Shown: positions 8,235 through 13,009, counted from the first letter of the stretch. The stretch is DNA of 64,000 nucleotides from Ignavibacteriota bacterium (GCA_963776275.1 CAVZMI010000021.1:64001-128000), one strand, 5' to 3'. Translations and numbers: made by a program. The notes: a model not told the origin generated them from the letters alone.

Positions 8235-10256
<2,022 letters not shown>

Positions 10257-10276
10257 TCACCTTAGCGTTATGAAAA

Positions 10277-11053
10277 TTACCGCCGCTCACTATTTTGTCG
10301 CTGAATACTTTCTTTTGAAATGACAACATTTCTCACAACAGCCCGGTTTCTTCCGAGCGGTTCAAGAGTTGTACCATTCAGTGTGAAACGAATCCCTCCG
10401 GCATTTCCAAGCGTGACAGTAAATTTTTCTTTTGCTGTCCATGCGTACTTCGCTTTTGGAGGGAAGAGATATTCTTCGGTGCGTTTTCCGTCGATGATAA
10501 TACTCAACCAGACCGAATCACTAGTGCTTGAAATGAGGTGCAGGCTATCCTGGGTAGCCCGGGAAGCCGCCGTCTCGACGGGTTTGTGTAATACCTGTTG
10601 TGGAGTTGATATTCGTTCGGTTTCCTTCACTACATCATCAAATGCTATTTGACGCACCGGTTGAGAGTCTGATGAATGAACGAAAATATATATACCGATG
10701 AGCCCAAGTAGTACAAGTATGACCGCCGAGATAAGAATTTTCGTGGATCTCGGCCATTGTTGCGATACTGTGGGCCCTTCCTGTCGGTCCGGCTTCACCG
10801 GTTCGGGTGCAGGTTCAAGTCTCTTTCCAAGAAAGAGATCATATCGCTGGAGGGCTTCAACCGGATTCAGGCCGACGCTGATTGCATATTCTCTTATGAA
10901 TGCGCGAATATAGGTCTGCTGAAGCGTTTCAAAGTTTCCCTGTTCGAGAGCTTCAAGAAAGTGGATGTTGATACGGGTCATCAAGGCGATTTCATTCAGA
11001 CTGATCCCCTTGGTGACGCGTTGTTTCTGAAGTTCTTCAGCAAACCAGTTCAT
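10277..11053 (-). CDS. RodZ-like HTH membrane protein with C-terminal DUF4115-type domain
   Basis: N-terminal HTH (TRINIHFLEALEQG...YIRAFIREYA), single TM, C-terminal VWLSI...LGNAGGI...NG. Confidence 0.85.
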   Translation of the reverse strand: MNWFAEELQKQRVTKGISLNEIALMTRINIHFLEALEQGNFETLQQTYIRAFIREYAISVGLNPVEALQRYDLFLGKRLEPAPEPVKPDRQEGPTVSQQWPRSTKILISAVILVLLGLIGIYIFVHSSDSQPVRQIAFDDVVKETERISTPQQVLHKPVETAASRATQDSLHLISSTSDSVWLSIIIDGKRTEEYLFPPKAKYAWTAKEKFTVTLGNAGGIRFTLNGTTLEPLGRNRAVVRNVVISKESIQRQNSERR

Positions 11054-11081
11054 GTATAGGCTGAATTTTTCGTGAAGAAAA

Positions 11082-11120
11082 ACGCCAAAAGTATTTTATA
11101 TTCCCGGATACTTTTGGCGT
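11082..11120 (-). terminator. rho-independent terminator downstream of the tRNA-Pro locus
   Basis: 13-bp stem ACGCCAAAAGTAT/ATACTTTTGGCGT followed by a T-run on the minus strand. Confidence 0.7.
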
Positions 11121-11183
11121 CATAAATTCTGACTCTGAGACTTGCGTTTCTTCGAACACATTAATGCATTACAAAAAATATTG

Positions 11184-11263
11184 TCGGAACATCCCAACGT
11201 CGGGCAGGCGGGATTTCCTACCCGTTCATCAATGGCTCGGGATAATCCATGATCCTATTTTAA
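11184..11263 (-). repeat. degenerate tRNA-Pro 3'-half copy with two insertions
   Basis: + strand TCGGAAC[16 nt]GGCGGGATTT[~26 nt]..AATCCATGATCC versus tRNA TCGGAACGGCGGGATTTGAACCCGCGACCC. All mismatches in the last block are transitions. Confidence 0.65.
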
Positions 11264-11283
11264 TATTTCTCTGACCGGATCTA

Positions 11284-11321
11284 TCCGACGAAGTTTCGAC
11301 ATCAGTCGAAACGTAGTCGGA
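11284..11321. repeat. palindromic (REP-like) hairpin overlapping the 3' end of the tRNA half-copy
   Basis: TCCGAC-gaa-GTTTCGAC-atca-GTCGAAAC-gta-GTCGGA nested inverted repeat. Confidence 0.75.
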
Positions 11322-11397
11322 ACGGCGGGATTTTCCGCCGTAGGCGGATCCGCCTCACCGAACCATAATCCTTAGCGGAGAACCCGCGACCCATTGA
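11317..11397 (-). repeat. tRNA-Pro 3'-half copy with a 46-bp palindromic insertion in the T-loop
   Basis: Minus strand TCAAT GGGTC GCGGG TTC[46 nt, 11334-11379]AAAT CCCGC CGTTCCG A. Identical to the tRNA 3' half except TCAAT for TCAAG. Confidence 0.9.
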
Positions 11398-11425
11398 ATA
11401 TCATTTTGTATTATGAAACTTCTTG

Positions 11426-11499
11426 TCGGAACGGCGGGATTTGAACCCGCGACCCCTTGAACCCCATTCAAGTGCGCTACCGGGCTGCGCTACGTTCCG
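11426..11499 (-). tRNA. tRNA-Pro (anticodon GGG)
   Basis: CGGAACG TA GCGC AGCCCGGTA GCGC A CTTGA AT GGG GT TCAAG GGGTC GCGGG TTCAAAT CCCGC CGTTCCG A gives a full 74-nt cloverleaf. CCA is not encoded. Confidence 0.97.
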
Positions 11500-11500
11500 C

Positions 11501-11740
11501 TTAAATTAATTTTTCAATATACAATCGCTTTTTATGTTTCTTGATTTCTTTCTCTCGTTTCATTGCATCACTGCGATTCACGAAGTCTTCAGTGTACATT
11601 AACTTCTACGGTTGATCCGACTTTGTCGATTGAACCTGTCCGTTATTATGTCTCTGAAGTCTCCTTTCCAAATCGTTCGTTTGCCCTACATAATAATTTC
11701 CATTTTTTATACTTCGTAATATGTAGACAAAAAAAGACAT
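11501..11740 (-). pseudogene. small GIY-YIG nuclease (UPF0213/Slx1-like) with an in-frame TAG at codon 45
   Basis: Hand translation: MSFFVYILRSIKNGNYYVGQTNDLERRLQRHNNGQVQSTKSDQP*KLMYTEDFVNRSDAMKREKEIKKHKKRLYIEKLI. It has VY..YYVG, R, HN, STK and REKEIK motifs. The TAG (11606-11608) falls at the family's conserved PW tryptophan. Confidence 0.9.
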
Positions 11741-11742
11741 GT

Positions 11743-11840
11743 TCAATTGCGCTACCGGGTCCCGACCTGACGAAGTTAGGGCGCGGATTCTCGTCCCGTT
11801 CCGTTGTAGACGGAACGGGGCGGAACTGCGCTACGTTCCG
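11743..11840 (-). repeat. tRNA-Pro 5'-half copy with a 66-bp palindromic insertion in the D-loop
   Basis: Minus strand CGGAACG TA GCGC AG[66 nt, 11760-11825]CCCGGTA GCGC A ATTGA. Identical to the tRNA 5' half except ATTGA for CTTGA. Confidence 0.9.
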
Positions 11841-11852
11841 CTGAATATATCA

Positions 11853-12263
11853 TTACTGGAGTTTGACAAGCAATGACTCGAGGAATTCTTTCATCTCGAT
11901 GAGATCAGAATGAAGCTGTTCGTCTTTAACCGGACGTTTCTGTGGAGTGGAAAGGAGTTCAAGTTGTTCACCTTCATTTTCGTCATGATATGAAAGGAGA
12001 ACCTGTTTCGCTCCCTCGATCGTATATCGCTCTTCACGAAGCAGTTTCTTGATATACAGTATTAGTTTGATATCCCGATTCGTGTAGATGCGATTGCCGG
12101 CCCGATTTTTTGCCGGCTTCAACTGCTCGAACTCTGATTCCCAATACCGAAGGACATATTGTTCGAGATCGGTCAACTTGCTGACCTCACTGATCGAATA
12201 ATACAGCTTCTTAATCCCGAGCTGTTTCATAACGTTATCATCCGAATAATGATAATGGCTCAT
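11853..12263 (-). CDS. MerR-family transcriptional regulator (type typically upstream of tRNA-Pro GGG)
   Basis: KLYYSISEVSKL...YVLRYWESEF..LKPAKNRAGNRIY...YTIEGAK. Confidence 0.9.
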   Translation of the reverse strand: MSHYHYSDDNVMKQLGIKKLYYSISEVSKLTDLEQYVLRYWESEFEQLKPAKNRAGNRIYTNRDIKLILYIKKLLREERYTIEGAKQVLLSYHDENEGEQLELLSTPQKRPVKDEQLHSDLIEMKEFLESLLVKLQ

Positions 12264-12319
12264 AAAATATACATAAATCGATTTTGAGTTGCAAATAATG
12301 CAGGAAGCTATTAAAAAAG

Positions 12320-12348
12320 AACGCCGATTCCGGCAAAGAATCGGCGTT
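12320..12348 (-). terminator. rho-independent terminator
   Basis: 11-bp stem AACGCCGATTC/GAATCGGCGTT followed by CTTTTTT on the minus strand. Confidence 0.75.
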
Positions 12349-12382
12349 GCCCGATCGTACTGATTTCTAATTAATAAGGTAA

Positions 12383-13009
12383 TTACGGAGTTCCATAAGC
12401 GGTCCCGAACGTTACATCAAAGCTTCCGGCTGATACTTGGACTGGTGTACCCGAGGCAGAACCTGATATCCCCATACCGGTCCCGCTAAAGTTCCCTTTC
12501 ATGCCTGTGGACGAATATGAGGTAATATTTGCGGTGCCGCTCTCAAGCATATAATAATTCCCGTTTGTACTGGTTTGACTGCTAGCCCCTTTAATAAAGA
12601 TGAGCATGGCTGTATTATCAGTTCCAGAAGCAAAACTATAAGTGCCTGTACCCACTTTGTTACTAGAAGGGGTGCGTTCTAATTCAAGAATCGCATAATC
12701 CCAGTCATTACTGGATCTCCACAGAAATGCATAAACCCATGCAACATTTGAACTCGCATCATACCAACTCATTACACCACTGCCGGTTTGACCGGTGCTA
12801 GTCGGATTAAACGAACCGCTTATGTTCCAGGAGTTACCAGCCGTACTCGAATTCGTATTAAAGGACAATGACCCTGAACCATATGATCCTGTGTTTGGAT
12901 TATTCGGACCCGTGGTATCACTACCACTATCACTCTTTTTACATGATGCCATAAGCATGACGAGTGCAATACTTATGATCATCACAAGCACAAATTTGAA
13001 TTGTTTCAT
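12383..13009 (-). CDS. hypothetical Ser/Gly/Thr-rich lipoprotein
   Basis: Signal peptide with lipobox LMASC followed by KKSDS; GGAGG SD. Confidence 0.75.
   Translation of the reverse strand: MKQFKFVLVMIISIALVMLMASCKKSDSGSDTTGPNNPNTGSYGSGSLSFNTNSSTAGNSWNISGSFNPTSTGQTGSGVMSWYDASSNVAWVYAFLWRSSNDWDYAILELERTPSSNKVGTGTYSFASGTDNTAMLIFIKGASSQTSTNGNYYMLESGTANITSYSSTGMKGNFSGTGMGISGSASGTPVQVSAGSFDVTFGTAYGTP

Follow-up and report, generated by a model that had tools for sequence, protein, structure and literature searches.

Organization of the tRNA-Pro(GGG) Locus

This study concerns the tRNA-Pro(GGG) locus in a 64,000-nt stretch of genomic DNA from an Ignavibacteriota bacterium (GCA_963776275.1, CAVZMI010000021.1:64001-128000), referred to below as the window. 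At this locus, a small GIY-YIG nuclease gene and an intact tRNA-Pro(GGG) are enclosed by two outer pieces that correspond to the 5' and 3' parts of a tRNA-Pro. Coordinates are those of the 64-kb window, and every part of the cassette is located on the minus strand. Read along that strand, the order is a merR-family regulator gene, 12 nt, tRNA-Pro positions 1-15, a 66-nt insert, positions 16-32, an open reading frame (ORF) of 79 codons, the intact tRNA-Pro(GGG), a 27-nt spacer, positions 38-56, a 46-nt insert, and positions 57-73.

The merR-family gene (11853-12263) was taken from the ORF list and matched Pfam PF13411 (E=5.8e-19). The outer 5' piece begins 12 nt past its stop codon, as the original prediction for this locus had noted. 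The first part of this 5' orphan (positions 1-15; 11826-11840) matched the inner tRNA fully in a scripted comparison, which also placed the 66-nt insert (11760-11825) in the D-loop. The insert consists of two hairpins separated by a GAATCC linker, ends in CGGGA at its 3' side, and has homologues at the same place in G002, G021, L052, L060, and L112. The second part (positions 16-32; 11742-11759), identified by direct reading and by script, carries A instead of C at position 27 (11747) and forms the leader directly upstream of the nuclease start codon, which sits at the former anticodon-loop site. The nuclease ORF (11501-11740) ends 1 nt before the inner tRNA.

The intact tRNA-Pro(GGG) at 11426-11499, with the anticodon stem CTTGA/TCAAG, was detected by ARAGORN and by the Rfam tRNA model (64.1 bits); it is the sole tRNA-Pro(GGG) among the 46 tRNA genes that ARAGORN found in the 3.7-Mb assembly. 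When positions 10000-13000 were scanned against Rfam at E <= 10, the inner tRNA alone exceeded the gathering score, and no intron or splice signal was recognized between the halves. Scripted comparison delimited the 27-nt spacer (11399-11425) that separates this tRNA from the outer 3' orphan. The first part of the 3' orphan (positions 38-56; 11380-11398) has T instead of G at position 43 (11393), as established by reading, by script, and by one contig of a sequencing run. It is followed in the T-loop by the 46-nt insert (11334-11379; scripted comparison), which contains TCCGC...GGCGGA hairpin units. In the right part of this insert, 29 of 32 nt recur in the tRNA-Thr orphans of the same genome, and a homologue is present in G028 at the same T-loop position of a 3' orphan located after tRNA-Pro(GGG). 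The last part (positions 57-73 plus one base; 11316-11333) matched the inner tRNA fully by script.

The downstream flank contains an 8-bp hairpin (11293-11312). Farther downstream, an older remnant of a tRNA-Pro 3' end was recognized by reading at 11182-11216; it comprises the 3' strand of the T-stem, a 16-nt insert, and the 3' strand of the acceptor stem. Because this remnant has a counterpart at the matching place in a relative of the same genus (G001), the locus has been hit more than once. The neighbours of the cassette are ordinary housekeeping genes: merR lies upstream, and an NAD-dependent ligase-like ORF (named by translation) and a RodZ-like gene lie downstream (8235-11053). The merR-tRNA-Pro(GGG) neighbourhood was retained in many of the order-level relatives searched.

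The GIY-YIG Gene

The ORF between the tRNA pieces encodes a GIY-YIG domain: it scores 70.5 bits (E=1.5e-19) with Pfam PF01541, for which the cut-off is 22.6. Among proteins of solved structure, the closest to it are the UPF0213 proteins with PDB entries 1zg2 (E=4.9e-10) and 1ywl (E=3.5e-7). NCBIfam returned only a sub-threshold match, to group I intron endonucleases, and PHROGs returned weak endonuclease matches. In an alignment of nine sequences including the window copy, Y6, Y17, R27, H31, and E63 were invariant. Analysis of the ORF pieces revealed an in-frame TAG (11606-11608) in place of Trp45, a residue that is invariant in the same alignment, indicating that the window copy of this UPF0213/Slx1-like nuclease gene is a pseudogene. 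Proteins of the family are 79-95 aa long and consist of a single domain; no separate DNA-binding domain was detected. At four other loci (L003:953-1228, L031:10-276, L024:583-852, and L033:947-1216), the nuclease gene lies upstream of a tRNA, and its frame enters the tRNA and stops at a TAG in the D-loop, so that tRNA positions 1-21 encode the C-terminal residues (SERGAAR or RNVAQPG).

The A27/T43 Pair

The stems on which the original prediction was built are present as described. Direct reading and a script both gave ATTGA in the outer 5' piece (11747-11743), TCAAT in the outer 3' piece (11397-11393), and CTTGA/TCAAG in the inner tRNA. By comparison with that tRNA, each outer piece has a single substitution, C27 to A (11747) and G43 to T (11393), and the complementarity extends through A32/T38 to ATTGAA/TTCAAT. 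Both outer pieces are themselves interrupted, by the D-loop insert of 66 nt and the T-loop insert of 46 nt, neither of which was mentioned in that prediction. The two changes are the same G:C-to-T:A transversion read from opposite strands. If one substitution per piece is placed uniformly, the chance of restoring a Watson-Crick pair is 0.0034; it is 0.046 if the substitutions are confined to the 6 nt beside each junction, a confinement that is seen in the orphans of five homologous cassettes, each with at least one change at positions 27-31 and none at 1-26.

Read support was sought in public sequencing runs. A 139-nt contig from one of these runs (depth 2.3) covers 11316-11442, differs from the window only at 11374, and therefore carries T43 and the T-loop insert. 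The best share of the stretch recovered from any run was 0.15, and none of the runs covers 11747 or the 5' half. Four runs compared with the stretch yielded only the conserved tRNA and this one low-depth contig.

The outer anticodon stem had been proposed to form as a long-range pairing. This stem was absent from both the minimum-energy and the centroid folds predicted for 11317-11845 (-171.6 kcal/mol, z = -4.07). The predicted fold pairs the D-loop-insert stretch GAGAAUCCGCGCCC (11766-11785) with the variable-loop/T-stem part of the 3' orphan (11378-11392), a pairing that may be due to chance or may be a trace of the origin of the insert.

Homologous Loci in Relatives

We searched 40 genomes of the same order for the locus. 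ARAGORN identified full tRNA-Pro(GGG) genes at 36 loci in 35 relatives (one genome contributing two), and five relatives had no full gene in the fetched stretches. C27:G43 was found in all 35, whatever the rest of the stem, so that the search for an ancestral A-T allele was negative; the tRNA-Pro(GGG) of G001 is identical to the inner copy of the window. An intact tRNA with A27:T43 was likewise detected in none of 401 genomes sampled across the phylum and had no match in a metagenome collection, the pattern being one that also specifies the three bases preceding the stem and the two following it, so that alleles differing there would escape it. The exact 3'-half pattern of the window, with any base allowed at position 43, had no match among metagenome contigs.

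GIY-YIG genes were present at tRNA-Pro(GGG) in 10 of the 40 relatives, as judged from the fetched stretches, lying on either side of the tRNA and often tandemly repeated. G001, whose merR is 98% identical to that of the window, has the merR stop codon, 12 nt, and a plain intact tRNA, and the outer ends of the window orphans coincide with the ends of this single gene. The two genomes thus differ by presence or absence at one site, with the cassette in the source genome (G000) and a plain tRNA in G001. Beyond its tRNA, G001 has a copy of the flank that follows the 3' orphan of the window, including the hairpin, then 34 nt, a 3' orphan, and the flank again. This 3' orphan starts at position 41/42, retains G43, and has a different insert after position 53. 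In G002, of the same family, a 5' orphan with the homologous D-loop insert is followed by the nuclease gene (63% protein identity) and the tRNA, with no 3' orphan. The cassette DNA of G002 is 71% identical to that of the window, compared with 74% for merR. These levels would fit a long co-residence of the cassette with its host, with recombination between the two copies of positions 1-15 having removed it from G001.

The 5' orphans of the five homologous cassettes are identical to the local tRNA over positions 1-26. Positions 27-31 read CCCGA in G002, CTTTA in G021, and CTTTG in L052 and L060, compared with ATTGA in the window; C27 is thus kept in four of the five, and L112 has A within a non-homologous leader (AAAG). 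Each of the five cassettes has at least one change at positions 27-31, and this stretch directly upstream of the start codon evolves fast. Among the 3' orphans of relatives that reach position 43, G was found in seven of seven, and the G031 orphan has an uncompensated stem change (A42 to T). No second cassette with both halves was found among the homologous cassettes: that of G002 has no partner half, and the G021 contig ends before it. Because the tRNAs and orphans of relatives keep C27 and G43, A27 and T43 are both derived and private to this genome.

Similar Arrangements in the Source Genome

The source genome (3.7 Mb in 38 contigs, with an estimated contamination of 5.3%) contains 13 GIY-YIG paralogues detectable by tblastn, eight of which adjoin tRNAs or tRNA copies. 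The five located away from tRNAs include four of another type, with G-x-G-A-x-Y/F-T replacing V-x-S-T-K. At tRNA-Pro(TGG), a GIY-YIG gene comes after the tRNA, and beyond it lies a partial copy (positions 44-73) whose T-loop contains a hairpin. Downstream of the tRNA-Met gene, four tandem units of 349 bp look identical, and each contains a GIY-YIG gene (L132:580-2100, contig C10). The tRNA-Met copies between and after these units have the D-loop replaced by a 15-nt hairpin, and the last copy has a T-loop hairpin as well. Upstream there is a 5' fragment containing a large D-loop insert. Of the tRNA-Met copies, the first, which is unaltered, is the only one called by ARAGORN. Orphans of both kinds, 5' and 3', are found at both tRNA-Ser loci, with inserts in the D- and T-loops.

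Arrays of hairpin-bearing tRNA pieces that lack a nuclease gene were found after tRNA-Thr(CGT), tRNA-Gly(TCC), and other tRNAs, and 19 of the 49 CCGCC-loop-GGCGG hairpins of the genome lie less than 1.4 kb from a tRNA gene, a zone estimated at approximately 3.6% of the genome. After tRNA-Thr(CGT) (L135:300-1000, contig C5), the array consists of 252-bp pseudo-tRNA repeats with hairpin inserts in the anticodon arm, in the T-loop, and at the T-stem/acceptor junction. On the 3' side of tRNA-Val(CAC) (contig C23, ~121340-121810), a 13-nt hairpin core, CCGCCTCCGGCGG, occurs five times within larger repeats, four of the copies being 34 nt apart.

The Nuclease Family Across Phyla

Using a three-protein alignment and one genome per species, we found 504 relatives of the nuclease and kept the best 80 loci, picked by similarity to the proteins of the Pro cassettes. 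Their record titles name Ignavibacteriota, Bacteroidota, Desulfobacteraceae and other Thermodesulfobacteriota, Zixiibacteriota, Patescibacteria lineages, Omnitrophota, Dehalococcoidia, Nitrospirota, Gammaproteobacteria, and others. A tRNA lies less than 300 nt from the ORF in 71 of these 80 loci, always on the same strand, and at least 14 isotypes are represented. No stop codon interrupts 90 of 95 ORF hits, and the catalytic residues (two Tyr, Arg, His, and Glu) are nearly invariant in 94 aligned hits; this pattern of conservation is that of a nuclease under purifying selection. Tandem copies occur in 13 of the 80 loci, and the same architecture is found in complete chromosomes and isolate genomes (L080, L099, L074, and L095).

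Partial tRNA copies are located near 67 of the 77 adjacent tRNAs. Among 128 tRNA pieces, right ends fall at positions 26-27 in 36 of 98 and left ends at positions 43-45 in 25 of 73. What these pieces lack is the anticodon arm, and smaller clusters of breakpoints occur in the D-loop and the T-loop. In most loci, the arm is replaced by a TCCCG...CGGGA hairpin, the interior of which is variable but paired. Hairpins of this form (TCCCG-stem-loop-CGGGA) were present in 45 of the 80 loci, whereas 50 shuffles gave 1.2 on average and never more than 4. In six related loci, no Rfam family besides tRNA was matched, and no relative encoded in phage records was found at E <= 1e-5.

We also considered whether the nuclease gene is generally enclosed by terminal inverted repeats or carried in a hairpin loop, and rejected this as a general rule because no consistent ends were found; when the surroundings of 93 ORF hits from the 80 loci were searched for exact inverted repeats, the matches were mostly self-complementary hairpins on both sides. 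In the source genome, one paralogue away from tRNAs (L136:520-830, contig C22) interrupts an integrase-like frame that resumes beyond the insert. The ends of this insert are inverted repeats of 10-11 bp (CCCGTGAGAT ... ATCTCACGGG), so that the ORF lies in the loop of a long hairpin.

Origin of the Locus and of the A27/T43 Pair

We consider it likely that the locus is a decayed tRNA-linked GIY-YIG cassette and that its outer halves are non-functional orphan tRNA pieces of this cassette. By analogy with SegB, the nuclease would break tRNA genes, and repair between short homologies would duplicate tRNA segments, leaving the nuclease gene between tRNA copies. Selection would keep one tRNA copy whole, and the remaining copies would lose the target when a loop or arm is swapped for a hairpin, becoming refractory. 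The 5' orphan would serve as the leader, and perhaps as promoter context, for an ORF that starts in the former anticodon loop. The A27/T43 pair is probably a by-product without function. Whether it arose through two independent G:C-to-T:A changes in fast-evolving bases beside the junctions is a question that we regard as evenly poised.

Several points weigh against this interpretation. Every mechanistic step for the family is one that we infer. Orphan copies have replaced loops or arms, yet an unaltered tRNA remains beside the gene; this intact tRNA keeps the presumed target, and the simple logic of homing, in which insertion destroys the target, may therefore not apply. The small size of the proteins and their lack of a separate DNA-binding domain are unlike SegB and suggest recognition of structure, as in Slx1, which recognizes structure. 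The conserved TCCCG...CGGGA hairpin is unaccounted for by the model. The probability of 0.0034 under uniform placement sits uneasily with coincidence, and positions 27 and 43 are the exact boundaries at which orphans of the whole family break, which hints at a mechanistic link. Orphan positions 1-26 track the host's own tRNA, so that gene conversion or repeated re-creation would be needed. Furthermore, because the 80 loci were picked by similarity to the Pro cassettes, the counts describe a subfamily and not all UPF0213 proteins.

A possible but doubtful alternative is common descent, in which both halves are the sides of one contiguous tRNA or pseudo-tRNA copy that was already A27:T43 and was later split in its anticodon loop by the nuclease gene and a replacement tRNA; the copy might have been a working compensated allele or might have acquired the pair by templated correction within a short stem-loop. 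The low chance of the pair under uniform placement speaks for this, as does the fact that the two pieces do not overlap and lack only five loop bases between them. The original prediction had likewise named descent from a single ancestral tRNA as one of two possibilities. The part concerning position is supported, since the outer ends of the pieces are those of the single tRNA site of G001; the A:T allele that it implied finds no support, since relatives have C27:G43 and neither all 35 of them, nor the 401 genomes of the phylum, nor the metagenome collection contained an A27:T43 tRNA-Pro(GGG). A 5' orphan bearing this D-loop insert is common to G002, G021, L052, and L060, all with C27, and A27 therefore arose once the orphan was already joined to the nuclease gene. 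On the 3' side, G43 is present in the orphan at the orthologous flank of G001 and in the six other cases. Common descent through a working allele would also have to pass from C:G to A:U without a wobble intermediate.

The pair may otherwise be a footprint of cutting, although we think this unlikely. The nuclease or the subsequent repair would act symmetrically at 26|27 and 43|44, the two sides of the anticodon-arm base, and leave the same misincorporation on both strands, with no selection involved. The arm begins with position 27 and finishes with 43, the breakpoints of the family cluster at 26-27 (36/98) and 43-45 (25/73), and the two substitutions are one transversion seen from two strands. 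The arm must have been contiguous at that time, however, so that the phylogenetic objection to common descent applies here as well, and other orphans of the cassette family do not show such changes. A broader version, to which we give slightly more weight while still holding it improbable, is that this UPF0213/Slx1-like subfamily consists of structure-guided parasites of tRNA genes that cut cloverleaf-forming DNA at arm bases and loops; the TCCCG...CGGGA hairpins would be miniature mobile modules with which these proteins replace an arm, and A27/T43 would be the footprint of a symmetric cut at the anticodon-arm base.

Selection for pairing between the outer halves, the second possibility raised by the original prediction, appears less probable again. 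The halves would stay complementary in order to pair in a transcript or in extruded DNA, and the long-range stem would aid processing or mobility of the cassette. The change does preserve a complementarity of 6 bp, and the hairpins of the family keep perfect stems despite differing sequences, so that structure matters somewhere. Against selection, the homologous cassette of G002 has no partner half, the stem change in the G031 orphan is uncompensated, and the stem is missing from the folds of 11317-11845. Six base pairs over approximately 350 nt would also make a weak stem, and the nuclease gene of this copy is already dead. The claim thus found no support in relatives or in the predicted fold. 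The reading of the halves as a split or intron-containing tRNA that still functions was rejected: the Rfam scan gave no intron signal, no second locus with both halves was found, no co-folding is predicted, and the 5' halves vary at positions 27-31 without a partner.

Duplication of an integrase attachment (att) site was likewise rejected. Only the 240-nt GIY-YIG ORF and the 27-nt spacer lie between the copies, with no recombinase; the inserted DNA has no room for an integrase, and the pieces are therefore not ordinary att duplications, in agreement with the original prediction. Finally, that the nested arrangement is a repeat-driven chimera of a metagenome-assembled genome is very improbable: the assembly is fragmented into 38 contigs with some estimated contamination and no public run contains the whole stretch, but the identical runs common to the copies are only 15-19 nt long, one run contig bridges the inner tRNA, the spacer, the 3' orphan, and the T-loop insert, and the same architecture occurs in the complete chromosomes and isolates L080, L099, L074, and L095.

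Comparison with Known Systems

SegB of phage T4, a homing endonuclease, is the closest known system. It resembles this family in being encoded by a free-standing GIY-YIG gene among tRNA genes, and on the family side the likeness extends to the many tRNA isotypes, the tandem arrays (13 of 80 loci, with four units at tRNA-Met), and the T-loop-disrupted orphans. Unlike SegB, the present family is encoded on the chromosomes of bacteria from many phyla, and a search at E <= 1e-5 gave no phage homologue. Its proteins have 79-95 aa, comprise the catalytic domain only, and are nearest to UPF0213; SegB is reportedly larger, with a DNA-binding part. According to one published account, the TpsiC stem-loop motif conserved in tRNA genes lies within the 27-bp site of SegB, and the segB gene is preferentially inherited (PMC2330249). 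In a second, the survey of which covered phage and archaeal-virus proteins only, SegB homologues are enriched near phage tRNAs without isotype preference and drive segmental amplification of the tRNA segment (PMC13096335). Partial tRNA copies with hairpin-replaced arms are a feature of the present family and are absent from the portions available of both accounts (PMC2330249, PMC13096335). In what is accessible of a 2006 survey of the GIY-YIG superfamily, tRNA appears only for a TrmH fusion, with no linkage to tRNA genes (PMC1564403). The UPF0213/YhbQ-type Slx1-like proteins 1zg2 and 1ywl, which belong to the same sequence family, are structural-genomics proteins without an assigned function.

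In fungal mitochondria, free-standing GIY-YIG ORFs come with a replacement for one end of a gene, and the original end persists as an orphan. The likeness lies in a nuclease ORF accompanied by a replacement partial gene copy, such that function is kept and a partial duplicate remains; the organellar targets, by comparison, are protein-coding genes, and no structural arms are replaced by hairpins. Partial tRNA duplications also occur at integrase attachment sites, with the crossover in the anticodon or T loop. As at the present locus, a partial tRNA copy flanks inserted DNA and the breakpoints lie in tRNA loops; unlike at such sites, there is no integrase here, 5' orphans occur besides 3' orphans, and the locus family has hairpin inserts and tandem arrays. 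Archaea have split and multi-intron tRNA genes, with interruptions at D-loop, anticodon-loop, and T-loop positions like those seen here. The present case differs in that the host is a bacterium, an intact copy is nested inside, no intron family is recognized, and the interrupted copy is not conserved in relatives.

Full-text literature searches, covering articles with supplements outside their scope, returned no account of tRNA-linked small bacterial GIY-YIG genes or of hairpin-defaced tRNA copies. Free-standing genes resembling homing endonucleases and tied to tRNA genes are known, and a bacterial nuclease-plus-tRNA cassette with hairpin-replaced copies is apparently undescribed in print. Selected pairing of the outer halves, if true, would make this a bacterial tRNA split across 350 nt, which the evidence does not support. 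What emerges is a phylum-spanning UPF0213 subfamily that lives beside tRNA genes with partial copies, the arms of which are replaced by one conserved hairpin. A candidate role for this subfamily is that of a selfish element targeting tRNA genes, a cellular counterpart of phage SegB. Such a role would also explain the tandem tRNA-like arrays and the tRNA fragments that break assemblies and confuse tRNA annotation.

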